In this document: positions 23 to 55,960 of the stretch, in pieces
Numbering within the stretch: the stretch's first letter is position 1
Layout of the letters: every line of letters starts with the position of its first letter
DNA from: a virus
Lineage: Duplodnaviria > Caudoviricetes
Virus record (IMG/VR): IMGVR_UViG_3300021598_000858
Location: 1 to 63,907 of that record
Direction: 5' to 3' (one strand)
DNA: 63,907 bases
Notes under the pieces: model-generated
Seen by the model: the letters and a program-made list of their open reading frames with translations, nothing else
Told to the model about the DNA's origin: nothing
The model's database searches: none
Program-made: the position numbers and the translations under genes

Positions 23-1648
23 TTACTTTTCGTACTCTTCTGGTACTCGCCTCTGTGGGAGGACGGTTCCATAAGCTTCGGTTACCAACTTGTTGCGGAG
101 GTCTGCTTCGCCCATATCGGCGGCGGTAAGAGCCTCATCCATTGTCGGTGGTAGTACCGCTGGGGCTCCAGCAGCACCTGGCTGTAGTGGCTGACCTGGC
201 TTGCCCCCAGTCTCTGGGTTAGGCATAGTGCCAGTAAGTTCAGCAATTTCTTGTTCAATTTGAGTCTGTAGCAACTTAAGGGCGCCATCGGCTGTAGCGT
301 CGTCAAGGAGTTCCTGACGAATTTCATTAAGTTTTTCAGTTGGGAACTCTTCACCGAGGGTGCGAAGCGCACCTTCCTTAGACTCAAGACCTAGAGACAG
401 CATCGACTGGACTTCATTAAGCGCAATCAACTTGTCTAGTGGCAGAGGTTGTGGGAAATGTACATATGTGAGGTAAGTCAATGGGTCATTAGGGTCAAGT
501 CTGTCAACTTGTCCCTTCTTAAGTTTAACGTTTCTAGTTGGGTCCCAGATAAAAAGCTCTGGTTCTTTAATAGCAATACTTCTAAGTATTAGGTCATTAA
601 TGCGCTCAAGACCACGTGCATACTGAATAATCTTTTGGTGGTAGCGGTTCATTAAAGGCTGGAATTGGATAGACAGAGCAACGCCAGATGTGTTAGAGAT
701 AGGCTGTGCTTGACCTAAAGCAGTTTCAGGAATACCAATCATTTCGTGCATAGACTTCTTAAGCATTGCTAGGAAATCCATAGCGCCCTTAAGACCTTGT
801 GCTCCACCTTCTAGGTTTTCTACCTTTGCGTCTTTTGGTAGACCACCCCAGACCTTGTTAGCGCCCTTTTCCAATTGTGAAGCTTTGGCACCAATGATGA
901 CTGTGACGGGAGCAGCGTGATAATTAACGATGTCAGCGATGTCAGTAGCAGTCTCGTTATAAGTACGGTTAATATTAATAACGTCATGACAATCGCTAAG
1001 ACCCCAAGCATTTATATACTCCTCAATAATGTCATCAGTGAGGATTTCAGTATAAGTAAACACTTGACGTGTGCCTTCAAGAGAAGTACCCCAAAAACGA
1101 TACTTTAATTTAAAACGGATGAGACGTTCGCGGTCATGTGGGTGAAACTCTGGAAAACAAAAAGATGCGTTAAGCGGAAGAATACGAACACGTCCTGGGT
1201 GTCCAAAACCAGAGGAGTCTGTCCAAGCTTCTTCGTATGCTACTTTAACAAAACAGTCTCCAGATACAGAGCCTTGCTGTCCCATCTCCCAAAGAACTGT
1301 TGCTTTATTGTTATCTACTTCCCAAACTCTTTCTAAGATATCTGGAACAATTGCTTCTGTTTCTTTTGGGGAACGGAAATTAACACCTTTACCAAAGGTG
1401 AAGTTAATAATAAAATCTGTGAATGCTCGGTAGTAATTAAGTACTAGTTGAGCGTCGCCTACCTGCCTGCGATAGGAGTAGTGGTGGCCAAGATACATAG
1501 CCCAGTTAAGAGAATAACGATTAAGACGCGGACCATGAACTTCGAATTCTTCATCTGCAAGCTCCACCAATCCTAACGGGGAAATGGAAATAGTTAAGTC
1601 AGAGGACGCTGCCCTATAACTTGGGGGAGAAAAATCAATGCCGCTCAA
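23..1648 (-). CDS. Phage portal protein (SPP1 gp6-like)
   Basis: 541-aa ORF just downstream of terminase. Portal-type segments GDCFVKV, WGLSD...INRTYN and SNTSGVALSIQFQPL. Confidence 0.8.
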   Translation of the reverse strand: MSGIDFSPPSYRAASSDLTISISPLGLVELADEEFEVHGPRLNRYSLNWAMYLGHHYSYRRQVGDAQLVLNYYRAFTDFIINFTFGKGVNFRSPKETEAIVPDILERVWEVDNNKATVLWEMGQQGSVSGDCFVKVAYEEAWTDSSGFGHPGRVRILPLNASFCFPEFHPHDRERLIRFKLKYRFWGTSLEGTRQVFTYTEILTDDIIEEYINAWGLSDCHDVININRTYNETATDIADIVNYHAAPVTVIIGAKASQLEKGANKVWGGLPKDAKVENLEGGAQGLKGAMDFLAMLKKSMHEMIGIPETALGQAQPISNTSGVALSIQFQPLMNRYHQKIIQYARGLERINDLILRSIAIKEPELFIWDPTRNVKLKKGQVDRLDPNDPLTYLTYVHFPQPLPLDKLIALNEVQSMLSLGLESKEGALRTLGEEFPTEKLNEIRQELLDDATADGALKLLQTQIEQEIAELTGTMPNPETGGKPGQPLQPGAAGAPAVLPPTMDEALTAADMGEADLRNKLVTEAYGTVLPQRRVPEEYEK

Positions 1649-21796: not shown

Positions 21797-21897
21797 TTAT
21801 CCACAGGTTTAACCCTGGGGGGTGTGGATATGTGGATAAAAATGTTATCAAACTGAGACCAACTACGCTTGCGCTTGATAGGGCTATCACATATGTT
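21797..21897 (+). promoter_or_regulatory. Module 1 control region: DnaA boxes, GTTAT half-site and sigma-A-like promoter
   Basis: TTATCCACA 21797-21805, TGTGGATAT 21823-31, TGTGGATAA 21831-39, GTTAT 21844, TTGCGC-N17-TATGTT 21869-21897. Confidence 0.7.
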
Positions 21898-21937
21898 TAG
21901 ACCGTGAGCAACAGGGCTCACAGTTAGGGGAATATAA

Positions 21938-22108
21938 ATGGTTCAAATGTCCGACACTATCGCCAATGCGGTGGCAACTATCGTCAAACTTACCGCACCA
22001 GATGTTCAGAAGGGCGTTCAGGATATCCTCATGAATGTAGTCGAGGCGTCATACAATCAGGGTATGCGCGACGGCATAGACACAGCAAAGCAAATCCTTA
22101 CCGCTTGA
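21938..22108 (+). CDS. Small hypothetical protein (56 aa)
   Basis: Read by hand after AGGGG RBS: MVQMSDTIANAVATIV...YNQGMRDGIDTAKQILTA*. Confidence 0.6.
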   Translation: MVQMSDTIANAVATIVKLTAPDVQKGVQDILMNVVEASYNQGMRDGIDTAKQILTA

Positions 22109-22177
22109 TGGCTTCTATCCCCCATCCGCAAGGGTGGGGGGTGGTGGTTAGCAAGGCGCTAATCAGAAGGGGGAATT

Positions 22178-22429
22178 ATGGCAACACTATTAAATATCCG
22201 TAAGGTAGTCGAGGGCACATACAAGGTGGACTCTCTACCTTGCCCACGCTGTGGGGATGTTCTAACACTAGAACTAGAAGGGGCGAAACTCTACGCCTAC
22301 AATCAGGGCGCATACATTCAGGATGTATTCCCTAACCTTAACTCTGGCGAGCGCGAGCGCTTTATCTCTGGTATCTGCAATCCATGCTGGCAACAGATGT
22401 TCATGTATATGGATGATGAGGAGGAGTGA
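22178..22429 (+). CDS. Small Zn-binding protein
   Basis: CPRCG...IQDVFP.L...ERE.FISGIC..CW; GAAGGGGG RBS. Confidence 0.7.
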   Translation: MATLLNIRKVVEGTYKVDSLPCPRCGDVLTLELEGAKLYAYNQGAYIQDVFPNLNSGERERFISGICNPCWQQMFMYMDDEEE

Positions 22430-22596
22430 TGACATACATAACTCTGACCAAAGCTTGCAGTATGTGCGACGGCATAGAGCACACATGGCAGGCAATACCA
22501 GGATGTGACCGTTGTGAGTCGAGCGCACATGGACCAAGCCATGAGCCATTCACACGAGGACACCGACCACATTGCACTGGTAATTGTTGTTGGTGA
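22429..22596 (+). CDS. Small Cys/His-rich protein (55 aa)
   Basis: Read by hand: CSMC...CDRC...GPSH...HCTGNCCW*. TGATG coupling; followed by a terminator. Confidence 0.55.
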   Translation: MTYITLTKACSMCDGIEHTWQAIPGCDRCESSAHGPSHEPFTRGHRPHCTGNCCW

Positions 22597-22602
22597 CAGG
22601 AC

Positions 22603-22632
22603 AGGCCCGCGACTTCCCCCGCGGGCCTTTTC
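22603..22632 (+). terminator. Intrinsic terminator
   Basis: AGGCCCGCG-loop-CGCGGGCCT then TTT. Confidence 0.8.
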
Positions 22633-22663
22633 TTATTTAGGGATGCCATACCCAAAGCCATGC

Positions 22664-22676
22664 TTGTTTGTGTTGG
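22664..22676 (+). repeat. Left half-site of the module-junction repeat
   Basis: TTGTTTGTGTTGG with no matching right arm. Confidence 0.7.
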
Positions 22677-22715
22677 CCCGCCCACCCCGTTCTATTGGGA
22701 GTTAGTTAGAGAGCC

Positions 22716-22791
22716 TGTGGATAACTAGGCGCAAATCGTTATCATTTTGTAATCGTGTGCGCTTGGTGTTGTCGGTGTTGTAGTGTAGTTT
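22716..22791 (+). promoter_or_regulatory. Module 2 control region
   Basis: TGTGGATAA-N13-GTTAT-N6-GTAAT, then TTGGTG-N17-TAGTTT. Confidence 0.75.
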
Positions 22792-22839
22792 TATCTCATA
22801 AGCGCAAGGGGCGCTTATAAGTTAGGAAAGAAGGTTGTT

Positions 22840-22980
22840 ATGTCAAAGTGTGGAGTTTGCGATACCTCAGAGAATATCGTGTTCTCAGGTGTTGATGCTT
22901 TCATTCTAGAATGTATGGAGCAGATTGAGCGCATTTGCTACGATTGCGCCAACGAGCAGAGGGCAAAGGTGTCCGCATGA
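22840..22980 (+). CDS. Small Zn-finger protein (46 aa)
   Basis: Read by hand: MSKCGVCD...ICYDCANEQRAKVSA*. Confidence 0.55.
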   Translation: MSKCGVCDTSENIVFSGVDAFILECMEQIERICYDCANEQRAKVSA

Positions 22981-23204
22981 TGTTTTACAATGGTTTCAAT
23001 CTAATGATTGACCTAATCCTTGCGGGCGTTGTTGGTTTCTTCGCTTATCGCTCAGGTTGGTTTCGTGGATATAGTGAAGGACAAGCGGACGCGGTCTGTG
23101 ATGATTGCGAGCGCATGGCTAAACTTGAGGCTGAGTATGCCTATGACTCATGGATTGAGTCACGCATTGAGGAAGACTTGGAGGCAAAGCATGGCATCAA
23201 CTAG
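22977..23204 (+). CDS. Small membrane protein
   Basis: ATGA overlap; MMFYNGFNLMIDLILAGVVGFFAY TM segment. Confidence 0.6.
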   Translation: MMFYNGFNLMIDLILAGVVGFFAYRSGWFRGYSEGQADAVCDDCERMAKLEAEYAYDSWIESRIEEDLEAKHGIN

Positions 23205-23373
23205 ATGGCACCGCGCAACCTACAAGGCGCACGCTGAGGTTATCAAGCAACTAATGAACCCAGCAAATGAGGAAGTATTAAAGAAGGTTGCCTATGAGTT
23301 GGCGATTATCTACGGCGCGGATAACGCTAACTTTCAAAGGGATAAGTTTCTCACCGCTTGCGGTGTGAAGTAA
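23191..23373 (+). CDS. Small hypothetical protein
   Basis: GGAGG RBS; ends DNANFQRDKFLTACG, a pattern common in small early phage proteins. Confidence 0.65.
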   Translation: MASTRWHRATYKAHAEVIKQLMNPANEEVLKKVAYELAIIYGADNANFQRDKFLTACGVK

Positions 23374-23389
23374 CAACCCCCTAACCAAC

Positions 23390-23414
23390 CAGCCCCCGCA
23401 GATTGCGGGGGCTG
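23390..23414 (+). terminator. Terminator hairpin
   Basis: CAGCCCCCGCA-GAT-TGCGGGGGCTG. Confidence 0.75.
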
Positions 23415-23417
23415 AGT

Positions 23418-23508
23418 TGTTTGTGTTGGGCTGCTTATGGCTCTGGGCTGGACTAGCAACTTGCGTTATAGCTAGTCCTAGTGCCCAATAAGCAGCCCAA
23501 CACAAACA
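23418..23508. repeat. Module-junction long hairpin A
   Basis: 21-bp perfect outer stem TGTTTGTGTTGGGCTGCTTAT/ATAAGCAGCCCAACACAAACA, 5-nt left bulge, inner stems. Confidence 0.9.
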
Positions 23509-23516
23509 TGCGGGCC

Positions 23517-23554
23517 TGTGGATAACTGTAGAGAAAACGTTATGAAAATGTTAT
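23517..23554 (+). promoter_or_regulatory. Module 3 control region
   Basis: TGTGGATAA-N13-GTTAT-N6-GTTAT. Confidence 0.8.
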
Positions 23555-23584
23555 GCAGAGAATGAGATAGTACTAGCGCTCCCT

Positions 23585-24601
23585 ATGATAGGCTGGCCAT
23601 TGATAGGCACCCGCCTATCCTTATGCGAAAGGGGAGAATCCCTACGTGGCGCTCCTGCATGGCATGGGTTAGCAAATGCAACTTTTGACGTGGACGCGGA
23701 TATTACTACCGCTGACATGCTCAAGGGCGCATTGCTTAATGACTGGAATGTACGTCTTGAGCCAGTCATCTATCCTGCAGACTATCGCGCAAAATCCGCG
23801 CTCAACTATGTTGTGCGTACTAATCCCGTCGACGCTGGCATTGACGTGCTCTCCGTCGTAGGTGACCGCTATTCCGTATTCCAAAATGAGGACCTCTTCA
23901 ATTTTGGTGACAATATTTTGGACGGTGGCGCCAAATGGGAATCCGCGGGCTCAATCAAGGACGGCCGAATTGTATTCGGTAGCCTAGTTGTACCTCGCGA
24001 ATTCATTCTAGACCCGCAAGGCGTCGCTGATAAGACTGTCACTTATTTATTGGTGCACTCTTCACATGACGGTAGCGCCAGTGTTCAGGCGTCAATTACA
24101 CCTGTGCGCGTCGTATGCCAAAACACGCTGAACATGGCGTTAAAGTCCACTAAGCAATCTTTTAAAGTCCGTCACACTTTAAAAGTTGAGGGACGCGTCG
24201 CTGAGGCCCGCCGTGTGCTAGGCCTAACATTCAATCACATGGACGAATTCGAAACCATGGCGAAAGCCCTATTCGAAACGTCAATTGACAATGTCCAATG
24301 GGGTAAGTTGCTCACCGCTATATATCCGCTGGACGATAACGCGCCAAAAGGCACCGTCACTAAGCATGCGCAAAAAATCGATATCTTGAATGATTTATAT
24401 TTCAAGGCGCCTACTCAAGACGGAATCCGTGGCACCGCATGGGGCGCACTTAATGCGCTTACTGAGCGTCTGGACTATTTCCGTCCATCTCGCACCGCCA
24501 ATGGCGAGGCAATCAAGGCAGCAGCCAGTGGATTTGATGCCATGGTAAATGCCGAAAAGGCCCGCATTCTATCCGCGGTCCGCGAATTCGCTAACGCGTA
24601 A
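23585..24601 (+). CDS. DUF932/DUF945-family phage/plasmid protein; true start codon missing
   Basis: PAWHGL, V.GD.Y...QN, ESAGS...G..VF, YLL..SSHDGS, TPVRVVCQNTL, RHT, GTAWGALNALTE..D. Confidence 0.8.
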   Translation: MIGWPLIGTRLSLCERGESLRGAPAWHGLANATFDVDADITTADMLKGALLNDWNVRLEPVIYPADYRAKSALNYVVRTNPVDAGIDVLSVVGDRYSVFQNEDLFNFGDNILDGGAKWESAGSIKDGRIVFGSLVVPREFILDPQGVADKTVTYLLVHSSHDGSASVQASITPVRVVCQNTLNMALKSTKQSFKVRHTLKVEGRVAEARRVLGLTFNHMDEFETMAKALFETSIDNVQWGKLLTAIYPLDDNAPKGTVTKHAQKIDILNDLYFKAPTQDGIRGTAWGALNALTERLDYFRPSRTANGEAIKAAASGFDAMVNAEKARILSAVREFANA

Positions 24602-24616
24602 CACGCGAAAGCCCCC

Positions 24617-24643
24617 GAGCCCCTGGCCCTAGGCCAGGGGCTC
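24617..24643 (+). terminator. Terminator hairpin
   Basis: GAGCCCCTGGCC-CTA-GGCCAGGGGCTC. Confidence 0.8.
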
Positions 24644-24646
24644 TCT

Positions 24647-24727
24647 TGTTTGTGTTGGGGCTATATATGAGCTTATGGGCAGGGTAGTTGTCTTTTCCTG
24701 CCCATATATATAGCCCCAACACAAACA
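24647..24727. repeat. Module-junction long hairpin B
   Basis: Outer stem TGTTTGTGTTGGGGCTATATA, 6-nt left bulge, inner stem TATGGGCAGG/CCTGCCCATA. Confidence 0.9.
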
Positions 24728-24732
24728 TTGCC

Positions 24733-24770
24733 TGTGGATAAGTGAGAAGAAATCGTTATAGAGATGTTAT
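24733..24770 (+). promoter_or_regulatory. Module 4 control region
   Basis: TGTGGATAA-N13-GTTAT-N6-GTTAT; TTGCGT at 24780. Confidence 0.8.
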
Positions 24771-24848
24771 CTAATAGGCTTGCGTTAGACAAGGAGTGAT
24801 GATTAGATAGTCCTATCGGAGATACCGATACAAGAGAAAGGGGCTTTT

Positions 24849-25244
24849 ATGGCTACCACCATAAAGGTAGATAGAGTAGTGCTAGTAGAGGCACTAAAGA
24901 AAAAGTTGGCAGAGCAGGATAAACTGCGTGCTGAGTATAAGAAAGCAGAAGAAAAATACAAGAAAGAACAAGAAGCCTTCGCTACTAAGGTTATTGCTCT
25001 TGCTAAGTCGGGGAAGTTAGAAATCGCCAGCACCAACTATCGCAGTTGGTCAGGAAGGTTGGAAATCGAGTTCAATGTTGATAAGACTCAAATCCCTGCC
25101 GAACCAAAGAACCCACAGACACCAGACGGGTGGCTTCACGATAGTGATTACCAAGAACTTGATAGGACTATCAAGTTGCTCGGTATGACCAGCGACCCAA
25201 GCGTTCCTACGAGCGTCTATAAGTCAGTAGCACAATGGCTCTAA
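24849..25244 (+). CDS. Hypothetical protein
   Basis: 131 aa, GAAAGGGG RBS, coiled-coil N-half; sole gene of its module. Confidence 0.75.
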   Translation: MATTIKVDRVVLVEALKKKLAEQDKLRAEYKKAEEKYKKEQEAFATKVIALAKSGKLEIASTNYRSWSGRLEIEFNVDKTQIPAEPKNPQTPDGWLHDSDYQELDRTIKLLGMTSDPSVPTSVYKSVAQWL

Positions 25245-25261
25245 AATAAGCCTAGCAAATG

Positions 25262-25287
25262 CCCCCGTGCCAAGCACGGGGGTTTTT
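25262..25287 (+). terminator. Intrinsic terminator
   Basis: CCCCCGTGC-CAA-GCACGGGGG-TTTTT. Confidence 0.85.
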
Positions 25288-25370
25288 GTTTGTGTTGGGC
25301 TGTCTGGCTGGCTATTTACTAGTCTTTCTACTAATGTTTTAGTAGAAAGCCAGACAGCCCAACACAAACA
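25287..25370. repeat. Module-junction long hairpin C
   Basis: Outer stem TGTTTGTGTTGGGCTGTCTGG, 16-nt left bulge, inner stem CTTTCTACTAA/TTAGTAGAAAG. Confidence 0.9.
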
Positions 25371-25379
25371 TCGGCAGCC

Positions 25380-25455
25380 TGTGGATAACTTCCCTGGAAT
25401 TGTTATCAAATCTTTATCAACGAGAGTAGAGATTACCGCGTTCTTAATATAGATT
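25380..25455 (+). promoter_or_regulatory. Module 5 control region
   Basis: TGTGGATAA-N13-GTTAT-N6-TTTAT; TAGATT at 25450. Confidence 0.75.
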
Positions 25456-25501
25456 AGCCCATGTAAGAGAAAGCCTCTTACAGAAAGAGGGGGACTACCC
25501 G

Positions 25502-25984
25502 ATGATTACAACGCCTGACGGTGTGAACATCTACACCGACCAAGACGTCCAAGAGAAGGTCGCAGAGGCTAAGACTACTGCAACCGACTCAGCAAACAGA
25601 TATACCAACCTACGTATCGCTGGTGTTGTTGAGACAACATTCAAGTCAGAGGTGCGCGAAGGTAACATGGAGGAAGACTATGCGGTCGGACTCTACAATA
25701 ACCTTGCTTCACAACTAGATTGGAGCACCATTGACAACCTCAGCGTTAAATACACAGCAACCGTCTATGCGTTCGACGACGAACTATTCACAATCAACGA
25801 CATTGAGGCAGACGACGAGCAAAGTGCTGAACAGTCCATTTGGGACGACCTTAATATCTCAAACGTTCGTCTTTCATTCGACGTCGAGGCAAATGGGGAA
25901 GGCGGTTACTTTAAAGGTGACGTCTATGACCTTGACGACTTCATCAACGATAACATCAAGATAGAGGTTACCGAACAGGATTAG
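25502..25984 (+). CDS. Acidic hypothetical protein
   Basis: 160 aa, strongly Asp/Glu-rich, GAGGGGG RBS; sole gene of its module. Confidence 0.75.
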   Translation: MITTPDGVNIYTDQDVQEKVAEAKTTATDSANRYTNLRIAGVVETTFKSEVREGNMEEDYAVGLYNNLASQLDWSTIDNLSVKYTATVYAFDDELFTINDIEADDEQSAEQSIWDDLNISNVRLSFDVEANGEGGYFKGDVYDLDDFINDNIKIEVTEQD

Positions 25985-26000
25985 TCCCCCGACTAATACG

Positions 26001-26035
26001 ATAGGCTTGGCGTTCATGGGCGCCAAGCCTATTTT
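26001..26035 (+). terminator. Intrinsic terminator
   Basis: ATAGGCTTGGCG-loop-CGCCAAGCCTAT-TTT. Confidence 0.8.
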
Positions 26036-26119
26036 GTTTGTGTTGGGCTTGCTTGGCTATTAGTAGCTTTTATTGCTGGCAGGCCTGCCTGCCAGCAGCC
26101 AAGCAAGCCCAACACAAAC
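26035..26119. repeat. Module-junction long hairpin D
   Basis: Outer stem GTTTGTGTTGGGCTTGCTTGGC, 16-nt left bulge, inner stem TGCTGGCAGG/CCTGCCAGCA. Confidence 0.9.
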
Positions 26120-26133
26120 CTTATCGTGTGTCC

Positions 26134-26209
26134 TGTGGATAACTTCCTTCATATCGTTATATAAATGTTATAGAGAATCCTTGCTACCGCGACCGCGCCG
26201 TAGTAGAGT
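26134..26209 (+). promoter_or_regulatory. Module 6 control region
   Basis: TGTGGATAA-N13-GTTAT-N6-GTTAT, then TTGCTA-N17-TAGAGT. Confidence 0.8.
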
Positions 26210-26237
26210 GAGAGCACTCTCAAAGAAAGGGGAGAAT

Positions 26238-26744
26238 ATGTCTATGACGACAGAGGAGAGGAAATACCGCTTCTCAGAGATAATGACGGCTATTCATCTT
26301 ATCGCAGATGAACCCGAGGATATATCAGAGTTCCGACTTCCTAATGGAACGAAAGGACTATCAGACGGCAGACTAAAGAGTGCGATTATGTGCCAAGTAT
26401 TCAAAGAGGACGAGGAGTTCTCCGCGAGGCTTGTCAATGCGCTCGCTTCTACCGCTATGGAACGAGCAAATGAAGGCAATAAGCCTACGCGTGATGATAT
26501 GTCAGCGTTGTCTATTGCTATCCACACCTGTTGGGGTGTTGGCGCTTTTACACCACTACTAGCCTTACTAGGTGTTACTGGTAAGGTTGCCGAGGCTTTT
26601 GATGTCGAAGTTCCCGAGGAAATAAGCCTAGTGTTCCGTCCAAATGCTTTTGCCAAGAAGTTCGGCGAGTTCAATCCTCTCGATATGTGTGATGAGGATA
26701 AAGACGACGAAACCTACAATGCGATACTAGGTGGTGATAAGTAA
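26238..26744 (+). CDS. Hypothetical protein
   Basis: Start MSMTTEE after GAAAGGGGAG. The ORF-track extension upstream runs through the hairpin and promoter. Confidence 0.7.
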   Translation: MSMTTEERKYRFSEIMTAIHLIADEPEDISEFRLPNGTKGLSDGRLKSAIMCQVFKEDEEFSARLVNALASTAMERANEGNKPTRDDMSALSIAIHTCWGVGAFTPLLALLGVTGKVAEAFDVEVPEEISLVFRPNAFAKKFGEFNPLDMCDEDKDDETYNAILGGDK

Positions 26745-27265
26745 TGGGTATGGACGTAATGGGTAATAACCCTATCAGCGAGCGCGGTGAGTACTTCCGC
26801 AACAATGTGTGGTGGTGGCGACCTCTATGGGATTACTGTTGTTATGTAGATAGTAGTCTTGGCGAGCGCGTACCTTATGGGCACTCTAACGACGGCGACG
26901 GTCTAAAGACGGCAGAGGAGTGCCAAGCACTAGCAAGGTTATTGTTAGAGAAACTTGAAAACGGCGAGGCGCTCGCTTATATCAAGGAACGAGATAAGGC
27001 TATCGCCGAGTTAGAGTGGGATACCTGCCGTCTATGTGAAGGTAGTGGTATCCGTACCGATAAGGTTGGCGTTGAAGGCGGTATGCCCGATAAAGAATTA
27101 CCTGAGGACATAGCACTCTTAGTAGGTAGGACGAAGGGTACTTGTAATGGTTGCCGAGGGTTCGGAAAAACCGAGCCTTGGGAGAGCCATTATCCGTTGA
27201 ACGAGGAGAACATTAGAGAGTTTGCAGGCTTCCTGCAAGACTGTGGTGGATTCTCTATCTGCTAA
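26744..27265 (+). CDS. Hypothetical protein with DnaJ-type CxxCxGxG Zn motifs
   Basis: MGMDV..., YFRNNVWWWRPLW, CRLCEGSG, CNGCRGFG, F..DCGGFSIC*. Confidence 0.75.
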   Translation: MGMDVMGNNPISERGEYFRNNVWWWRPLWDYCCYVDSSLGERVPYGHSNDGDGLKTAEECQALARLLLEKLENGEALAYIKERDKAIAELEWDTCRLCEGSGIRTDKVGVEGGMPDKELPEDIALLVGRTKGTCNGCRGFGKTEPWESHYPLNEENIREFAGFLQDCGGFSIC

Positions 27266-27279
27266 GTTCCCCTTTCTCT

Positions 27280-27322
27280 AGTAAGCCTATCGCTGATACC
27301 CTTGGCGATAGGCTTACTTTTT
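27280..27322 (+). terminator. Intrinsic terminator
   Basis: AGTAAGCCTATCGC-loop-GCGATAGGCTTACT-TTTT. Confidence 0.85.
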
Positions 27323-27371
27323 GTCACTCTCCGCCGCCGAGTGCTACTTGCGAGTAACTTCGGCGCGGAAA

Positions 27372-27481
27372 TGTTTGTGTTGACCCACCCATCTTATATT
27401 AGATTACCCACCCTATTTGAAGGCCCTTGCGGGCCTACTCCGCATATTGGCCATAGGCTTTAGCCTATGGCCAACACAAAC
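27372..27481. repeat. Module-junction element E (degenerate, branched interior)
   Basis: TGTTTGTGTTG at 27372 and CCAACACAAAC at 27471, enclosing two small hairpins. Confidence 0.75.
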
Positions 27482-27722
27482 CCTGTGGCGCATATCACAA
27501 GAGAGCAACGGCGTGTCGGCTTGACTAGCCGAGAGAGTTAGGCTACTGCCACGACGAGAGATAGGCTTATTAGGCTTATTAGGCGTAAGGCCAGACCTAC
27601 GGCTAGGGTCGAGAGAGCCGTATATGATAAGAGAGCGTAGGCCTATCCCACCCTTCCTTCCCTCTCTCTCTATATAACAAGAGATAACCCTATTACCGCG
27701 CCGTCGGGGGCATAGAAGGGGT

Positions 27723-27760
27723 TGTGGATAAGTAAGAGAAAATCGTTATACAAACGTTAT
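27723..27760 (+). promoter_or_regulatory. Module 7 control region
   Basis: TGTGGATAA-N13-GTTAT-N6-GTTAT upstream of the AAA+/VWA operon. Confidence 0.8.
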
Positions 27761-27853
27761 CAAAATAGAGCCTTCGGGAGTGGAATTAAATACGGAAATA
27801 GGCTTAGATAGGAACTAGGCAACAAGGCCTACAAGAAGGGAAACCCGAACCAA

Positions 27854-29311
27854 ATGTCACTCGCACTACTCGTCGTATCAGACGACCAACTCGAGGGCTT
27901 ACCTGCCCAAGCGCAGACACTCATCTTATCCGACGATACCGAGGTATATACATACCACCGCGTATCGAACGGCATGAAAGGTCGAGGTCAGGCGTGGAAG
28001 CAAGTATCACCCGCACAACTACCAAACAACCCTATCTCTCATGAACCATGCGCAGTAGTCTTATCAGACCGCGACCGCGACATGATGAAACTAGGTCAGA
28101 TTACCAATGTCGGTATCAAGGTGTTATACGCACTAGAAACAACTCCTACCGCAACCGCGCCCGAGGCGCACAATGAGGTCGCAGGTAGCCTTATCGCTCG
28201 ACTAGAAATCGGTGACAATAGCCTTAACGACTACATCACCGACAAGCGCCGTAACCAAGGTGTATCTATTAGGCCTATCGTGAAAGGTGTTGATACGCCT
28301 ATCGCGCAAGTAGCACAAGTGGCAGAGGTCGCTACTAAGGTTATCGTCGAAACCCCACGACCAACCTTATCGCTCGTAAATGCCATGGTAAGCGTACCCG
28401 ACAAGAAATGGGCAGAGGCTTATATCAACCGCAAGTTCAAAGCCGACGACCGCGATATCACAGACTTCGAAATCTATGATTACGCAAGGGAAAACGCCAT
28501 GAACGTTCTAATTGAAGGTCACGCAGGAAGCGGTAAGACTATGAGCGTTCAAGCATACGCAAGCGCTCGAGGCATGCGTTACTTCAACGTCGCATGTCAT
28601 ATCGGGCTAGAAGCCTCTCACCTAATCGGTCGTTGGATACCAACCGCCGACGGTCACTTCAAATGGCAAGACGGCGCAGTTACAGAGATAGTTCGTAACG
28701 GTGGCGTACTCCTATTTAACGAGATTAACTTCATGCCCGAGCGCCTATCAACGTTCATATTCTCACTCGTTGATTACCGCCGAGAAATCCAAATCATGGA
28801 AAACAATGGTGAGGTTATCAAGGCTCACCCTAACCTTATTATCTTAGGTGACATGAACCCCGACTATCGCGGTACTCGACCACTCAACCAAGCGTTCGCA
28901 GACCGATTCTCAATAAGATTATCGTTCCCATACGATAAGGCTATCGAGAGCAAACTTCTCAAGTGTAAAGCGCTCGTTGAAATGGCAAACCAACTACGCG
29001 ACGAGTTCAATAAGGGTACGCTCGCTACTCCTATCTCAACTCGTTCTCTCGTAGCGTTCGTGACTAACGCAAAGACGTTAGGCATGGAGTTCGCTATCAA
29101 TAACTACATCAACTCCTTCGAAGGTGATGAGGAACGCTCGGCGGTACGGTTGGTAGTCAATACTCACCGCGACAATATCGCAGAGGAATTAGGGTTAGCG
29201 GTACTTTCAATTAAGACCGACGAAACTAAAGTAGAAATGCTAGAGGATAACCTTACTAGCAACTCAACTACTTTTAATATCCCTATCACCAACCATACGG
29301 CGGTAATCTAA
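27854..29311 (+). CDS. MoxR/CbbQ-NorQ-type AAA+ ATPase
   Basis: GHAGSGKT, F.WQDG, LLFNEIN (Walker B variant), MNPDYRGTRPLNQAFADRF, ISTR. Confidence 0.85.
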   Translation: MSLALLVVSDDQLEGLPAQAQTLILSDDTEVYTYHRVSNGMKGRGQAWKQVSPAQLPNNPISHEPCAVVLSDRDRDMMKLGQITNVGIKVLYALETTPTATAPEAHNEVAGSLIARLEIGDNSLNDYITDKRRNQGVSIRPIVKGVDTPIAQVAQVAEVATKVIVETPRPTLSLVNAMVSVPDKKWAEAYINRKFKADDRDITDFEIYDYARENAMNVLIEGHAGSGKTMSVQAYASARGMRYFNVACHIGLEASHLIGRWIPTADGHFKWQDGAVTEIVRNGGVLLFNEINFMPERLSTFIFSLVDYRREIQIMENNGEVIKAHPNLIILGDMNPDYRGTRPLNQAFADRFSIRLSFPYDKAIESKLLKCKALVEMANQLRDEFNKGTLATPISTRSLVAFVTNAKTLGMEFAINNYINSFEGDEERSAVRLVVNTHRDNIAEELGLAVLSIKTDETKVEMLEDNLTSNSTTFNIPITNHTAVI

Positions 29312-29313
29312 TC

Positions 29314-31218
29314 ATGGGTTACAGATACTCTCAAGATAGCGCCGACCAACTACTACGCGAGTTATACAACACTCAAGAGTGGAATAGCGAGTTAGGTCGC
29401 TTCGAGTACGACGAGGAAGCGTTCGAGGCCAAGCAAGAGGCTTATCAAGCGCACAAAGAAAAACTATCGTCGGTCGGTGTTATCTACTCAAAGGCCGATA
29501 GCATTATCACAGGTGACAAGATAGAAGTACGCGTTGATGATTCGCCCGAGTTAGAAACCACCGCATATAACGACGGTAAGGCTATCGTGTTCAACGCACA
29601 CTTACTCGAGGATATCGACGATAACACTATCGTTAGCCTTCATGGGTTCAACTATCATGAGGTCGCACACGTTCTTTATACTCCACGCGCTAACTCCGAG
29701 TTAGGTCAATGGGTTATAGAGCAAGGTTATCGCCGAGCCATGAACATACTCGAGGATAGTCGTATCGAACGACTTATCGTTGCTAAGTATCCTGCCGTTC
29801 AACCGTTCGTAGAGGCTTCAACGCTTGACTACATACTCAAGGGTGATTCGAGCGAGTGGGCTTCCTTATTTATATTAATTACAGGTCGCAAATACTTAGA
29901 TTACGATATTCGACAAGATATCGCTACGCGCTTCGCTAAGCAGTTCGGCAAAGCAACCGCGATAGCCTTAGCGGATATTATCCATGAGTATCGAACACTA
30001 GCCTTCCCTTCCGACTACGACCGAGCAAAGCGACTTATCGCAGAGTTCGCAAAGTACGTTGGTAATGATGAGCAAAATCCACCGCCTATCGTGCCACAAA
30101 ACGGCAACGGCTCATGCGACGGTCATATCGACCGCCAAATGATGAGGAAAGGTCGAGCCGAGGGCAACAAGGAACAACAACGCCTACAAGATAAGGCTAA
30201 CGCTTCCGAGCAAAACTCAAAGCGTGAGGAGTTCAACGGCGACAACGGCGACAAAGAAGTCGGCGACGGCGCTCAAGGTGTCGGCGACCAAATCACCACC
30301 AAAGAAGTTCAAGATGAGTTCTCTGATGAGGATAAGGCGCTCAAAGATAAGATTAACGCCGAGTTATCTAATATAAGAAACAACGATAACGTTCGCCGAG
30401 ATACCGCAGAAGTTCGTAGAGCGATTATGGATAACGACGTTATGCGTTCAGGTGTTAAGAGCGCTAACTATAAATACATGAGCGTACCTATGACCGCCAA
30501 CGCGAGCGCTCGTAGATTCGCTTCGGAGTTAGAGCGTATTCGTATCGATAACGACCCTGCTTGGGAGTTAGAGAAAGAAAGCGGTAGGCTTAACATACAA
30601 CGTGCTATGCACTCTGATATCAACGATATCAATAAACTATTCGACCGTTGGAGTGAGGGAAACTCTGCCAACGATATCGAAGCGGTAATCCTAGTGGATA
30701 CGTCGGGTAGTATGGGCGGTCGTATCTATAAAACTATGGAAACCGCATGGATATTGAAGCGCGGTATCGAGCGTATCAACGGTAGGGTAACGGTGTATAA
30801 GTTCAACCATGATAGCCGTATTATCTACAAAGCAGACGAGAAGGCTAAGGCCGACGAGTTTAGATTCGTAGATAGTAGTGGTAGCACTAACCCCTTCAAG
30901 GCGCTTATGGAAGCCGAGCGCGTTCTTAACTCAAGCCGTAAGAATATAAAGATATGCTTCATGATTACCGACGGCGAGTGGGATAGTACCGACGTTAATA
31001 ATGGGATTATCTCACGCATGAACAACGCAGGTGTTCTTACAAGTGTCGTATTCCTTGGCAACTTAAACTATGTCAAAGAGCATGACCGCGAGCGCTACGA
31101 GGAATACTTAATAACCTTGCGCCATGGCGCTAAGTTCTTTCGTATCGTTGATGAAGCCAAAGATATTCTCGACGTAGCCAAAGACCTAGTTAAATCTCAA
31201 ATGAGGTCGAGGCACTAA
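29314..31218 (+). CDS. VWA-domain protein with N-terminal HExxH metallopeptidase-like domain
   Basis: HEVAH, NILEDSRIE, MIDAS DTSGSM, ITDG; canonical partner of the upstream AAA+. Confidence 0.85.
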   Translation: MGYRYSQDSADQLLRELYNTQEWNSELGRFEYDEEAFEAKQEAYQAHKEKLSSVGVIYSKADSIITGDKIEVRVDDSPELETTAYNDGKAIVFNAHLLEDIDDNTIVSLHGFNYHEVAHVLYTPRANSELGQWVIEQGYRRAMNILEDSRIERLIVAKYPAVQPFVEASTLDYILKGDSSEWASLFILITGRKYLDYDIRQDIATRFAKQFGKATAIALADIIHEYRTLAFPSDYDRAKRLIAEFAKYVGNDEQNPPPIVPQNGNGSCDGHIDRQMMRKGRAEGNKEQQRLQDKANASEQNSKREEFNGDNGDKEVGDGAQGVGDQITTKEVQDEFSDEDKALKDKINAELSNIRNNDNVRRDTAEVRRAIMDNDVMRSGVKSANYKYMSVPMTANASARRFASELERIRIDNDPAWELEKESGRLNIQRAMHSDINDINKLFDRWSEGNSANDIEAVILVDTSGSMGGRIYKTMETAWILKRGIERINGRVTVYKFNHDSRIIYKADEKAKADEFRFVDSSGSTNPFKALMEAERVLNSSRKNIKICFMITDGEWDSTDVNNGIISRMNNAGVLTSVVFLGNLNYVKEHDRERYEEYLITLRHGAKFFRIVDEAKDILDVAKDLVKSQMRSRH

Positions 31219-31227
31219 TAAGGTTAG

Positions 31228-31273
31228 GCGCGGTGGGCTACCCCTTCCCCCCACCGCGCTTATCAACACAAAC
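31228..31273 (+). repeat. Hairpin followed by a right half-site of the junction repeat
   Basis: GCGCGGTGGG/CCCACCGCGC, then CAACACAAAC at 31264-31273. Confidence 0.55.
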
Positions 31274-32820: not shown

Positions 32821-33243
32821 GTGCAGACGTTCTTACCGCTTCCTGACTTCAAAGAGAGCGCTCGAGTTCTTGACGATAAGAGATTAGGTAAGCAGAGAGT
32901 TGAAGCCTATCAAGTCATGCGTGTATTAGCGGGCATGACAAAAGGTTGGCGCAACCACCCCGCCGTTCTTATGTGGAGAGATTACGAGGGCGCGTTGTAT
33001 GAGTACGGCCGATTAGTTTGTGTCGAGTGGCGCGAACGTGGCTTCAATGATTCCCTATTGGAAGCCTTCCCCAAAGATAAGGTAGTATTACCACCATGGC
33101 TAGGTTACGACGAGTTCCACACTTCGCACCAAGCCAACTTAGTCAGGAAATTACCCGAGCATTATCGTAAGTACTTTCCCGAAGTAGATGAACACTTGCC
33201 CTACTATTGGCCTACAAAGGAGACAACATGGCTAGAAAAATAG
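32821..33243 (+). CDS. Pyrimidine-dimer DNA glycosylase-like protein (T4 DenV / MSMEG_6728 family)
   Basis: MQTFLP...SA..LD.KRLGKQRVEA.Q...GWRNHPAV.MW...PPWLG...H.SH..NL.RK...Y.WP. Confidence 0.85.
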   Translation: MQTFLPLPDFKESARVLDDKRLGKQRVEAYQVMRVLAGMTKGWRNHPAVLMWRDYEGALYEYGRLVCVEWRERGFNDSLLEAFPKDKVVLPPWLGYDEFHTSHQANLVRKLPEHYRKYFPEVDEHLPYYWPTKETTWLEK

Positions 33244-36533: not shown

Positions 36534-38000
36534 TTACTCTTCGATGGCACCCTTGATTATTTGAGTGGTTTGCTCCTCATTTAACCCGCCATTTGGCAAC
36601 TCTCTAAGTGCTTGAGCCTTGTCTCCGAAGATAGAACTTAGCACACCAGCGCTGCCTTGTCGCTCTACCGTCATGCGAATAAACTCACGAGAATCGTCCA
36701 ATTCTTTTGTTGTTTTGATTAATTTAAACAGGCGGTCTATCTCCTGAGAAACGTTAGGGTCAGCATATCCACCATTCATTTCTTCAGCAAAACGCATAAA
36801 AGCAACTCTTTGGCCCTGCATTTCTATAACAGCATTAATTAAAGCCTTAAGTTGTTCTTTACTCTTTACCTCTACTGGTAACTTAAAAGCACACATAGAT
36901 TGAGGTTTAAAAGCGGGGCAGTTAGCGGCTACAAAACAGGTGTCACATGCCCTAAGTGAAGTGCTATGGGATGAAACTGTGGTGACATCTTTAATGACGC
37001 CATCGGCATCAATTTCACTCTTTGTATCAAATCCAAAGACGGGAAGATTGGCGTATTCGTCAGCATTTCGTGGTTCAAGTTTCCGTGTATGAATACCCTT
37101 ATTATCATATACGGCAGGTGGGGTTTCCCCACTTTGCTCCACTTCTCTCCCCTCACTATTATCATATAACAGCGGGTCATCTGGGCTATTGGTCATCTTG
37201 TTCATCCTTATCTCGAACTGCTCATAAGACCACACCGCTAACTTACAGACTTCCTGCGGGTCATCCTCGATTATCTTATCAATGTCCAAGCCAGCCTTTT
37301 CGTAGATTGCCTTGTACCTTGGGCGTGCTTGTTCCTTCATCTTCTTTGGATAACGAACTAGTCTAGTGCCATCCCAAATGATTGTTTCACCGTGCATCAT
37401 CGGTGAAAGCCACGATAAGGTGCTGGCACTTTCAAATATAATAGAACGCAGGTTGTCAGGTTTGGCACACCCTAATGCATGCCACCTGGTCCCTTCCCGC
37501 TTGCTGTGTAGGCGGGTAGCGCTGGCAAGTCTGCTATCTATCTCAATAGCGTCTCCTGGGATAGCGATGTCCAAATAGTAGTCAACTAGCCTTTGAAGCC
37601 CATTTAAATCGGTCTGTGGTTGCCATACAGGAATGAACTTACCTGGTGGTAGCTCGGACCATACCTTCTGTCTGTGGCTCTCTACCCAAGCTGGGTCAAT
37701 GGTGGGGCTGTTAATCTCAAATACGGTATTGAGCCTATCTATATTAACGGCTACGAAATGTTCGTACCCTGCGGCAAACTCTTCGAGCTCATCAGCTGAC
37801 AGCTTCAGGGTTTTAGGTAAGCCTGGGTGTACATAAATATAGAAATCTTTATTAAAGTAATTTTCTAATAGATACTCTTTGGTCTTAGGTAGACCGCGGC
37901 TCACCAGGCGATGGTAGCTGACGCCAACGTGGTTGGCGGTTGTCTCTTCAAGAATTACTCTATTTGAAGGTACCTCAGCGCCTAAATAGACAATTTTCAC
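36534..38000 (-). CDS. Conserved phage protein: TGT/DpdA-like N-terminal region, Cys cluster, helical C-terminus
   Basis: PVW, IAIP, WHALG, FESASTLSW...G pattern; CDTC...CP...C. Confidence 0.45.
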   Translation of the reverse strand: MKIVYLGAEVPSNRVILEETTANHVGVSYHRLVSRGLPKTKEYLLENYFNKDFYIYVHPGLPKTLKLSADELEEFAAGYEHFVAVNIDRLNTVFEINSPTIDPAWVESHRQKVWSELPPGKFIPVWQPQTDLNGLQRLVDYYLDIAIPGDAIEIDSRLASATRLHSKREGTRWHALGCAKPDNLRSIIFESASTLSWLSPMMHGETIIWDGTRLVRYPKKMKEQARPRYKAIYEKAGLDIDKIIEDDPQEVCKLAVWSYEQFEIRMNKMTNSPDDPLLYDNSEGREVEQSGETPPAVYDNKGIHTRKLEPRNADEYANLPVFGFDTKSEIDADGVIKDVTTVSSHSTSLRACDTCFVAANCPAFKPQSMCAFKLPVEVKSKEQLKALINAVIEMQGQRVAFMRFAEEMNGGYADPNVSQEIDRLFKLIKTTKELDDSREFIRMTVERQGSAGVLSSIFGDKAQALRELPNGGLNEEQTTQIIKGAIEE

Positions 38001-44464: not shown

Positions 44465-44965
44465 CTATTCTATTTCAATAGTTTTAGCTTTCTTAGCCTC
44501 TGGGATAATGCGCTCCAGGGCTATGGTTAGAAAACCGTCCTCCAGCTTTGCTCCTTTGACAACCACGTCGTCTGATACAGCGAAGCGTTGTAAGAAAGTG
44601 CGGCCAGCGATGCCTTTGTAGGCATAGGTTGCGGAGTCATCATCAGCTCTTTCTCCGCTGACTGATATGACATTTTCTTTGTACTCTATATTAATTTCTG
44701 ACCTTTTAAAGCCCGCAACGGCAATCTGAATCTCAGCTTTGTCATCGGGTAGGGTCACGATGTTGTAAGGCGGGTATGTTGATTTAACCCTGAGGTCCTC
44801 TAACTGTCTAAACATATCTAAATGTCTATCAAAACCAAAGGTCCACGGTTGCAACATACTATTTAATGTTGCAAATGGGTCCTGGGTTTGAGGAAAGATT
44901 TCCTTGTTATAGTTTATTTTTGGGGCGTCGTTTCCGCGCCATTGAATTGGGTAGCCTGAAGCCAT
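44465..44965 (-). CDS. Small heat-shock protein (Hsp20/IbpA-like)
   Basis: YPPYNI, IAVAGF, YKGIA.R.F...F, A.LEDGFLTI.LER.IPE..K...I.I. Confidence 0.92.
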   Translation of the reverse strand: MASGYPIQWRGNDAPKINYNKEIFPQTQDPFATLNSMLQPWTFGFDRHLDMFRQLEDLRVKSTYPPYNIVTLPDDKAEIQIAVAGFKRSEINIEYKENVISVSGERADDDSATYAYKGIAGRTFLQRFAVSDDVVVKGAKLEDGFLTIALERIIPEAKKAKTIEIE

Positions 44966-46074: not shown

Positions 46075-46264
46075 AATTAGATAGGACGTTATTGGCTATC
46101 TCTATGTAAATATGAGCGTTCACTATAAGGTCCTCTGGATGGTGTAGCTCGCCTGCTTTTCCTGGCCAATTACTTTTTAAATAATCATGTAAACCAGGGG
46201 TCAGTTTGCTCATGAACTCATCGATTGTAAGGTATCCATGAGCTCTTAAATGTTTATTATCCAT
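46043..46264 (-). CDS. Hypothetical protein
   Basis: 73 aa overlapping its neighbours. Confidence 0.5.
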   Translation of the reverse strand: MDNKHLRAHGYLTIDEFMSKLTPGLHDYLKSNWPGKAGELHHPEDLIVNAHIYIEIANNVLSNFGTIACDKKH

Positions 46265-46814
46265 TGTCTTTCTTTTGCTCTAGGATTAAGAAGGGGCCTG
46301 AAGTATACACATCTAAGTCTTCTGCTATCTGCAGCGCTTTTTCAATAGGCGCACCCGCATGAAGAGCTCCTAATGCATACCCTGAACCATTACCAACGCC
46401 GTAGAAACCTGTCTCTGCTTGACAGACTGATAGGTCTTCGCTGACATCAAATATCTCACCATTAACAGCAATTAAGAAATGAAAACGTTGTCCTTTGTCA
46501 TTCTTTGGACGCTCTTCATCAAAGTTATATCCATTGTTCTTTAAACAATCTCTTAAAGATGGAATTAATTTAGATATAACAAAGTGGTATGTGTCAGTCT
46601 TGTCTTTGGCGGTCATCTTTGGGGGTTTCCACAGATGCTGGGCAATATCACATGCTCCAACCTCACCTGCACCAGCTAACAACACGCCGTTTGCCAACTG
46701 AGATATCTTTACCATGTTCTTATGTCTGAAGATACGACCATCATCATCTGTTACTTGATTATCCGCACCTAAAACACACTTGTTTCTATGTTGTACGCCA
46801 ACAATCGTTGTCAT
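46257..46814 (-). CDS. Proteasome-beta/HslV-like Ntn peptidase
   Basis: N-terminal MTTIVG, LGAD.QVT, conserved Lys, GVGNGSGYALGAL, D.YTSGP. Confidence 0.8.
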   Translation of the reverse strand: MTTIVGVQHRNKCVLGADNQVTDDDGRIFRHKNMVKISQLANGVLLAGAGEVGACDIAQHLWKPPKMTAKDKTDTYHFVISKLIPSLRDCLKNNGYNFDEERPKNDKGQRFHFLIAVNGEIFDVSEDLSVCQAETGFYGVGNGSGYALGALHAGAPIEKALQIAEDLDVYTSGPFLILEQKKDNG

Positions 46815-55229: not shown

Positions 55230-55271
55230 CCTTATAGTTTATTTACTATATGGCTGTATGTACTGCTAAAG

Positions 55272-55879: not shown

Positions 55880-55880
55880 G

Positions 55881-55953: not shown

Positions 55954-55960
55954 AATACTG

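Follow-up and report, generated by a model that had tools for sequence, protein, structure and literature searches.

Repeated joints of a terminator, a palindrome and a DnaA box separate expression units in a putative early region of a predicted actinophage

T4-type phages carry early promoter/stem-loop cassettes (PeSLs), small terminator/promoter cassettes that lie among non-essential small genes (PMC2839356, PMC4122927). We describe a similar arrangement in a viral sequence of a different lineage, IMG/VR record IMGVR_UViG_3300021598_000858. The window is the whole of this record (63,907 bases, linear, with a CheckV completeness estimate of 66%). Between 21.8 and 27.9 kb, seven plus-strand units with unrelated cargo are separated by one repeated joint. 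Its parts follow in the order intrinsic terminator, long hairpin with fixed ends, perfect DnaA box, N13-GTTAT-N6-GTTAT, -35/-10 hexamers, small 5' hairpin and ribosome-binding site (RBS). Judged from their sequence, the joints are probably modules of PeSL type that combine terminator, boundary and promoter and link the early promoters to host DnaA. Read in this way, they are regulatory cassettes of T4-type logic in a new version and not a gene-capture machine.

The joints and PeSLs are alike in that both are small composite terminator/promoter cassettes repeated in hyperplastic early regions. Insertions, deletions and replacements among related phages are bounded by the cassettes in PeSL carriers, and here five unit-level differences are bounded by joints and four gene differences lie inside operons. 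Neither appears to involve a dedicated recombinase; homologous recombination is the route for PeSLs and the presumed one for the joints. Six terminator-like sites each precede predicted -35/-10 hexamers of sigma-70 type by about 90-450 nt. The seven units cluster within 6 kb, and the motifs are also clustered in the relatives G001, G003 and G004. The carriers differ: PeSLs occur in T4-type myoviruses, whereas the joints occur in what appears, by its WhiB gene and by a terminase large subunit (TerL) and PolA nearest to those of phage BRock, to be an actinophage related to Borockvirus. The T4-like early promoter consensus of PeSLs is not found in the joints, which have -10 hexamers of the TAGnnT type. 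Unlike PeSLs, the joints have a second, perfect palindrome of 70-90 bp with fixed ends between terminator and promoter, and a perfect DnaA box with phased half-sites upstream of each promoter. Mini-circles are known for PeSLs; none was seen here among contigs, which drop rare forms. New relative to PeSLs are therefore the lineage, the long palindrome and the DnaA box; the terminator/promoter cassette logic was already known.

Phage T5 offers a second comparison. T5-like repeat regions have consensus or near-consensus DnaA boxes together with palindromes or inverted repeats in the first-expressed region of a lytic siphovirus, their non-coding repeats are, as in the array, better conserved than the adjoining open reading frames (ORFs), and T5 and the array have eight DnaA boxes each (bioRxiv 10.1101/866236). 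In T5, however, the boxes are paired 3 bp apart in two large inverted repeats within gene-free terminal-repeat regions, and these repeats were proposed as a DNA injection stop (bioRxiv 10.1101/866236). The array has one box per promoter at a fixed distance from -35/-10 and six transcription units, with an inverted pair only in the first joint (J0; joints are numbered J0 to J6 and units 0 to 6).

Like the palindromes, integron attC sites separate unrelated genes and are imperfect palindromes in which the ends are conserved and the interiors vary while the structure is kept. Integrons have IntI, whereas neither IntI nor another recombinase was found in five complete relatives or among the scanned window proteins, and the array units carry their own promoters and terminators whereas integron cassettes are promoterless and served by a common promoter. 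Compared with attC as generally known, the array ends (5'-GTTTGTG...CACAAAC-3') reverse the polarity of the ...AAC/GTT... order, and the stems are perfect (954 of 965 positions Watson-Crick) where attC has extrahelical bases. Baculovirus homologous regions (hrs) are likewise repeated palindromic elements dispersed between genes, which enhance early promoters and can act as origins (PMC4535591); they belong to a eukaryotic virus, are read by viral IE-1 and consist of tandem 64-bp units, and the likeness is in logic only. Repetitive extragenic palindromes (REP/BIME elements) are similarly placed 3' of genes, but they measure 20-40 nt, occur in hundreds per genome and have a Y1 transposase (PMC2817692), as against five to six palindromes of 70-140 nt per genome here and no Y1 enzyme in the five relatives. 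In literature searches on the motif words, on DnaA boxes in actinophage early regions and on freshwater actinophages, mostly at the level of listed records, we found no description of the joint grammar.

Palindromes and predicted promoter modules at the joints

The sequence TGTGGATAA-N13-GTTAT, in which the first element is the DnaA box, occurs six times without mismatch and on the plus strand only (22716, 23517, 24733, 25380, 26134 and 27723). Shuffled sequence has a mean of 0.77 copies, and none of 100 shuffles reached six. The word at the hairpin ends, GTTTGTGTTG, has 12 exact copies, 11 within 22666-27481 and one at 31264, where about 0.12 would be expected by chance for a 10-mer in 64 kb on both strands. 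Repeat searches returned a 42-nt family (six copies, 62-83% identical to the reference), a family that joins the T-run to the left arm (five copies), a right-arm family (four copies) and, as inverted repeats, four of 21-28 nt with 93-100% complementarity. Six terminator-like sites on the plus strand lie directly upstream of left arms, and their T-tract continues into the arm.

Four junctions (J2-J5) are complete and three (J0, J1 and J6) are partial. J1 has a left arm and no right arm, J0 lacks the hairpin and has an inverted DnaA-box pair plus an 8/9 copy, and J6 is a composite 109-nt element with ends unpaired in the DNA minimum-energy fold, separated by 241 nt from the DnaA box downstream of it. 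Four of six copies have an exact second GTTAT, the exceptions being GTAAT in J1 and TTTAT in J4. The cargo families of the seven units are all mutually different; Pfam matched three of 13 cargo proteins (DUF932, AAA_5 and VWA) and gave no family for the other ten.

As DNA, the four simple hairpins (J2-J5) fold at -31 to -39 kcal/mol (z -9.2 to -12.0), and none of 200 shuffles was as stable. Together with those of relatives, 57 distinct hairpins were collected; four from L024 were dropped because this is the same record as G002 on the opposite strand, leaving 53, many of them orthologous and hence non-independent copies. Pairs were counted inward from both hairpin ends. In a MAFFT alignment of 30 of these hairpins the arms fell out of register, and it was not used for pair counts. 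Stem positions 1-10 are paired in all 53 hairpins; position 8 is TA in 46 and CG in seven, and position 9 is TA in 52 and CG in one. Positions 12-19 are paired in 39-45 of the 53, with at least four pair types. Among orthologous J3-J5 hairpins we found five distinct compensated double changes and no uncompensated change. Across 965 outer-stem positions there are 954 Watson-Crick pairs, four G.T, four A.C and three others, with no excess of sense-strand wobble. This near-perfect complementarity without wobble bias argues that selection acts on the DNA palindrome itself, or that the arms correct each other, rather than on an RNA fold.

Downstream of the palindrome, -35-like hexamers lie exactly at +48..53 from the box and a TAG-type -10 at +71/72 in four of seven joints (J1, J3, J4 and J5), while the sequence between box and hexamers differs among the four. 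J2 comes near to this offset, with its -10 at +68. A perfect 9-mer at a fixed offset from the predicted promoter is thus seen in four of seven joints and closely approached in one more, a layout that would suit a DnaA-regulated promoter. By arithmetic, the box centre would fall near -79 and the GTTAT words near -59 and -48, with the three on the same face of the helix. The GTTAT repeats can also be read as TTATNNNNN 9-mers with 2 bp spacing, in which case a strong box is accompanied at each joint by two weak ones with an 11-bp period. We infer that these modules are the promoters of the units. All seven leaders fold into a stem-loop of 5-8 bp, with individually modest z scores (-1.0 to -3.9), and carry a purine-rich RBS.

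To our knowledge, DnaA is the only protein of this exact specificity. Profile searches found no DnaA domain IV (DnaA_C) encoded in the window or in five complete relatives, and no sigma region 2 (Sigma70_r2) in the five relatives, so that host polymerase and host DnaA would be the simplest readers of the joints. In metatranscriptome contigs from three runs (X15, X16 and X17), coverage extends over the gene bodies of units 0-5, and no listed piece crosses a palindrome or box. Since DNA contigs of run X2 break at the same joints, these gaps are uninformative on transcript ends. The CobS part (27324-28200) has no contig cover in the three RNA runs.

The initial annotation of this region had described an array of self-contained units with a shared junction grammar, unrelated cargo, four complete junctions and wiring to host regulators, retained independently and not recently duplicated. 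The array, its grammar and their retention are borne out by the motif counts, the cargo families and the covarying stems, and the eight perfect DnaA 9-mers make a link to a host regulator plausible. Its parts list needs qualification: the first GTTAT is exact in six of six copies and the second is not, a simple hairpin exists at J2-J5 only, promoter hexamers at fixed offset are predicted at four joints, and the 5' hairpins occur in all leaders at modest individual stability.

The right-arm word followed by a DnaA box was found in 28 stretches of 26 IMG/VR contigs, including five complete relatives of 95-98 kb. In complete relatives the boxes and arms are concentrated within a single stretch of about 5-7 kb, which holds nine of ten DnaA boxes in G004, six of seven in G003 and seven of seven in G001 (counted across the record ends). 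The palindrome and the perfect box are the only parts common to all clades, and the word after the box is clade-specific: two GTTAT in the clade of the window, CTTYCTGAGA in G004, and TAGGTNAACA in L032 and L022. In the G003/L019 clade a second, inverted box follows (TTATNCACA/TTGTCCACA), one variant of which is presumably the actinobacterial DnaA-box form. These second-box variants agree with the DnaA consensus TT(A/T)TNCACA (bioRxiv 10.1101/866236). In the G002 clade (L065, 7900-9550), one joint has an inverted DnaA-box pair ahead of the palindrome.

Cultured relatives lack the arrangement. In Streptomyces phage BRock, the nearest by TerL, the array is absent and only four dispersed box-like 9-mers occur, and the DUF932 region of Streptomyces phage Jay2Jay, the nearest by DUF932, has no comparable palindromes. 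Megablast of the array region against the phage collection gave no match. Contigs of bacterial genomes carry the right-arm word with a DnaA box in 29 stretches, against about 25 estimated by chance. The exception is one Microbacterium sp. assembly (L039, L044 and L046) with three copies of a repeat of about 300 bp, two of them near contig ends, in which the right-arm word is followed by a DnaA box 21 nt on and by a further box-like word; these loci have no hairpin and no Rfam match.

The left-arm 10-mer is also dispersed in apparently coding DNA of some relatives (loci L070-L084). G003 has nine copies outside the array, and G005 has ten forward copies against one reverse, where about 0.1 per strand would be expected. 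No such dispersal is seen in the window or in G001.

Exchange of units among relatives

The closest relatives, G001 and L006 (81-85% nucleotide identity), have a unit order identical to that of the window, whereas in distant relatives whole units are gained, lost, replaced or reordered. The gene f12 (131-140 aa) precedes DUF932 in L022 and L032 and follows it in G004, G002 and L023. The gene c8 is absent from L022, L032 and L023, with f73 in its place in L032; c9 is absent from G002 and L015; and the first unit varies between genomes. Other differences fall inside operons, away from any joint (f14, f74, c2 replaced by f66, and the c5/c6 region).

One replacement could be mapped, that of c8 by an unrelated 131-aa gene (f12) in L023. 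Homology between the window and L023 runs through DUF932, terminator, palindrome, box, repeats and -35, is then lost, and resumes at the T-run and left arm of the next joint. The left breakpoint is in the promoter region, just past the DnaA box, direct repeat and -35, and the right breakpoint is exactly at the T-run/left arm; what was exchanged therefore comprises the core promoter with its leader, the gene and its terminator. Over 133 nt, the J4 scaffold shares 83.5% identity between the window and L023, while the proteins of the adjoining gene are 33% identical. The scaffolds are better conserved than the cargo.

No tyrosine (Phage_integrase, PF00589), serine (Resolvase) or Y1 HUH (Y1_Tnp, PF01797) recombinase was found in any of the five complete relatives, nor were tyrosine, serine or Y1 recombinases present among the scanned window proteins. 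This fits recombination between scaffolds, as in PeSLs, and not dedicated capture. By analogy, we infer that units are exchanged by ordinary homologous recombination between the repeated scaffolds. No joint-to-joint join is listed among the contigs, which drop rare forms. The only two contig joins are internal to c9 and to the CobS gene, and X2 contigs have loose ends just past left-arm words (22695 and 27390, single contigs each), which hint at strain mosaics there.

The array had initially been interpreted as a platform for cassette capture and shuffling, with comparison of cargo order and a search for recombinases as checks. Distant relatives do differ by whole units, with the c8/f12 breakpoints at a joint, and the closest keep their order; recombinases of the three classes were found neither in the five complete relatives nor among the scanned window proteins. 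Cargo for takeover or anti-defence, also suggested at first, would be conjectural; ten of the 13 cargo proteins match no Pfam family. We retain the regulated, self-contained units under selection, and with them the early, hyperplastic character of the region, and set aside an integron-like capture platform.

Proposed mechanism and alternatives

We propose that the array forms the early (hyperplastic) gene block of a lytic phage with a genome of about 96 kb and freshwater actinobacteria as hosts. Every short transcription unit would begin with its own host-type promoter, end with an intrinsic terminator and be set off from the next by a two-part boundary. The first part would be a DNA palindrome of 70-90 bp, with the outermost 11-12 bp fixed and the next 8-13 bp copy-specific yet perfectly complementary. 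The second would be an upstream promoter region of fixed geometry, with the DnaA box and two GTTAT half-sites ahead of -35/-10. Host RNA polymerase would transcribe the units, host DnaA on the box may set or gate the activity of the early promoters, and the palindrome may act at the DNA level to set neighbouring units apart, either by forming a cruciform or by being marked by a protein. Because a scaffold of about 100 bp is repeated in direct order, ordinary homologous recombination could add, remove or replace whole units over evolutionary time, in the manner of PeSLs, and the phage's own RecA and Cas4-like exonuclease would be available for this.

Several observations weigh against such PeSL-like modules tied to DnaA. 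In the G002 clade the palindrome is mostly followed by CGGGCGTGTC repeats in place of the box, so the box is dispensable. The fixed offsets are not kept by J0, J2 and J6, and a scan for promoters of E. coli consensus found 11 sites against 16.5 +/- 4.0 in shuffles, with no enrichment. One-mismatch variants of the box are not concentrated at positions that DnaA tolerates, a test that proved uninformative. The DnaA assignment thus depends on the match to the consensus 9-mer and, in one clade, on the variants of the second box, and a phage protein of an unrecognised family could be the reader of the box. Gene differences inside operons (four) are about as frequent as those at joints (five), in a count from a simple ORF call that also lists spurious ORFs, so the joints are not the sole exchange points. 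The 5' side of the hairpin interiors has 429 unpaired bases and the 3' side 160, with 29 hairpins having more of them 5' and nine more 3'. RNA folds of the sense strand are slightly more stable, by a mean of 1.6 kcal/mol (difference -1.6; 29 versus 18 hairpins; Wilcoxon p 0.024, computed over non-independent copies). The constant direction of the interior asymmetry and the stabler sense folds leave room for a strand-specific role of the hairpin, which is possible.

A more far-reaching reading joins palindrome and DnaA box into one bipartite DNA element, a cruciform-capable boundary with a protein reader beside a dock for host DnaA. It would couple every early unit, and perhaps replication start or DnaA sequestration, to the host initiator, and would also be the designated exchange point. 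We regard this reading as tentative, and the balance of our judgement is against it. In its logic, such an element might be the bacterial-virus counterpart of the enhancer/origin palindromes of baculovirus hrs, a parallel we draw with the same reserve.

The long hairpins could instead act as RNA in read-through transcripts, as back-up (U-less) terminators, RNase III sites or 3' stabilisers, on the model of the intercistronic hairpins of T7 early mRNA. The asymmetry of the interiors and the stabler sense folds speak for this, as do the position of the hairpins on the sense strand, directly after a terminator and before the next promoter, and stems of 19-25 bp, long enough for RNase III by its generally known length requirement. 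But a selected RNA should tolerate G.U and not A.C, and the equal counts of G.T and A.C in the outer stems argue against it. Strong terminators also precede the hairpins, and the U-tract of these terminators is supplied by the left arm itself, so that terminated RNAs would lack the hairpins; no U-tract follows the right arm. A search of the region with Rfam 15 gave eight weak matches, all under the gathering score and mostly to miRNA-precursor models (one to an sRNA and one to a snoRNA model), and thus no family. We consider a role as RNA unlikely.

In our assessment, a role of the joints as DnaA-dependent replication elements, whether as origins or for priming, is improbable. On that account the strong box would nucleate DnaA on the two weak boxes of 11-bp period beside an extrudable palindrome, and the DnaC/IstB-like loader would deliver the DnaB-like helicase. 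All eight perfect DnaA boxes of the 64-kb window lie in the roughly 6 kb of the array, the TTATNNNNN reading of the GTTAT repeats resembles the low-affinity arrays of oriC, and the phage has genes for a DnaB-like helicase, a primase and an IstB/DnaC-like ATPase and none for a recognised initiator. There are also precedents in the 'A site' of the ABC primosome, where a hairpin with a DnaA box is a known priming signal, and in the hr palindromes, which serve as enhancers and origins (PMC4535591). However, one box per promoter at fixed -35/-10 offsets is a layout for transcription control and not a compact origin, the boxes are spread over 6 kb at spacings of 650-1590 bp, the hairpin stem does not include the box other than in J0 and some relatives, and no AT-rich unwinding element was identified. 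In T5, the early-region DnaA boxes were argued not to be origins (bioRxiv 10.1101/866236).

Finally, a site-specific platform that shuffles units at the hairpins, integron-like or with a hairpin-recognising HUH enzyme, is very improbable: the attC-like logic of fixed ends and variable paired interiors, the whole-unit differences among distant relatives with one right breakpoint exactly at a left arm, and the two positions of f12 relative to DUF932 are outweighed by the lack of recombinases in the five complete relatives and among the scanned window proteins, a promoter and terminator of its own for each unit, ends in the reverse of the attC order, collinear close relatives, and indels as frequent within operons as at joints.

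If PeSL-like modules do place host DnaA before every early promoter, these phages would read the replication and growth state of the host at the first step of infection and might also drain DnaA from it, a form of early control that has no described example in actinophages. As an example of selection for DNA self-complementarity with a fixed base, the palindromes are unusually clean. The joints would also offer a natural set of rules for building insulated, portable expression units in low-GC actinobacteria, which are hard to culture and engineer, and would mark the sites at which accessory genes, possibly for takeover or counter-defence, are exchanged in abundant lake phages.

Phage lineage and features of the array

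The minus strand of the window carries genes for the portal, the large terminase and the tail, and the plus-strand block spans about 21.9 to 33.3 kb. Beyond it, the minus strand encodes ribonucleotide reductase, a DpdA-like transglycosylase, RecA, a Cas4-like exonuclease and DNA polymerase I, as well as the primase, the DnaB-like helicase and the IstB/DnaC-like ATPase. TerL is 55% identical to that of Streptomyces phage BRock, and the polymerase is 38-40% identical to those of BRock and its kin. A WhiB gene is present at 48783-49007 and in all five complete relatives (95-98 kb), and actinophages are the overwhelming source of DUF932 homologues in the phage collection. On these grounds, the predicted host group of the phage is the actinobacteria. 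Sequencing runs that contain the phage are mostly labelled freshwater or lake water, with seven of the best 14 labelled fungus metagenome. The features of the array are listed in Table 1.

Table 1. Coordinates of joints, cargo and boundary elements in the array (positions in the window)
Feature	Position	Strand	Description
J0 boxes	21797..21839	+	Inverted perfect DnaA boxes (21797-21805, 21831-39), 8/9 copy (21822-30), then one GTTAT; divergent start of the plus-strand block
J0 predicted promoter and leader	21869..21937	+	-35 21869-74, -10 21892-97; stem-loop leader, z -3.89
Unit 0 cargo	21938..22596	+	Three small ORFs (21938-22108, 22178-22429, 22426-22596), no Pfam family; second ORF weakly matches phrog_20898, a function-unassigned family
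Unit 0 terminator	22603..22628	+	Intrinsic
J1 solo left-arm word	22666..22675	+	No right arm; C-rich stretch after
J1 promoter module	22716..22791	+	DnaA box, N13, GTTAT, N6, GTAAT; -35 +48, -10 +71
Unit 1 cargo	22840..23373	+	Three small ORFs (22840-22980, 22977-23204, 23206-23373), no Pfam family
Unit 1 terminator	23390..23414	+	
J2 palindrome/hairpin	23419..23507	.	89 nt, 20-21 bp perfect outer stem, z -9.2
J2 promoter module	23517..23589	+	Box, N13, GTTAT, N6, GTTAT; -10 at +68
Unit 2 cargo	23585..24601	+	DUF932 protein (Pfam)
Unit 2 terminator	24617..24643	+	
J3 palindrome/hairpin	24648..24726	.	79 nt, z -11.5
J3 promoter module	24733..24809	+	Box, N13, GTTAT, N6, GTTAT; -35 +48, -10 +72
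Unit 3 cargo	24849..25244	+	131-aa ORF, no family; other genes replace or join it in relatives
Unit 3 terminator	25261..25283	+	
J4 palindrome/hairpin	25288..25369	.	82 nt, z -12.0
J4 promoter module	25380..25455	+	Second repeat TTTAT
Unit 4 cargo	25502..25984	+	160-aa ORF, no family
Unit 4 terminator	26000..26033	+	
J5 palindrome/hairpin	26036..26119	.	84 nt, 23-bp perfect outer stem, z -9.6
J5 promoter module	26134..26209	+	
Unit 5 cargo	26238..27265	+	Two ORFs (26238-26744, 26744-27265), no family
Unit 5 terminator	27280..27318	+	
J6 composite	27373..27481	.	Left-arm word, two CCCACCC words, two small hairpins, right-arm word; z -5.35
J6 spacer	27482..27722	+	241 nt; TGTGG-N6-TCACA palindrome (27484-27499), six AGAGAG/AGAGAT words, CT-rich run
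J6 promoter module and leader	27723..27853	+	Box, N13, GTTAT, N6, GTTAT
Unit 6 cargo	27854..31218	+	AAA_5 (CobS/MoxR-like) ATPase 27854-29311; VWA (CobT-like) protein 29314-31218
Solo right-arm word	31264..31273	+	3' of U-less hairpin downstream of VWA gene; array end

The spacer of J6, ahead of the CobS-like gene, has no ORF and no Rfam match. Its TGTGG-N6-TCACA palindrome, which we take to fit CRP/GlxR-type half-sites, adjoins the right arm and is kept in G001, G002 and L023.

At 23640, 46 nt are missing from the window that are present in relatives, namely the DUF932 start codon and about the first 15 codons. Contigs from X2 (DNA), X15 and X17 have extra letters at this position, and the loose end in X17 equals the G001 sequence. 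The gap is either an assembly error or a defective variant, and it is by chance that the long ORF starting at 23585 stays open across the promoter and leader.

Accessory genes of the window include the DpdA-like queuine tRNA-ribosyltransferase (36534-38000), which suggests 7-deazaguanine DNA modification, and genes for Hsp20 (44465-44965), a proteasome-subunit-like protein (46257-46814) and a pyrimidine-dimer glycosylase (32821-33243). Three tRNA genes (Gln-CTG, Gly-GCC and Asn-GTT) lie on the minus strand at 55271-56033.

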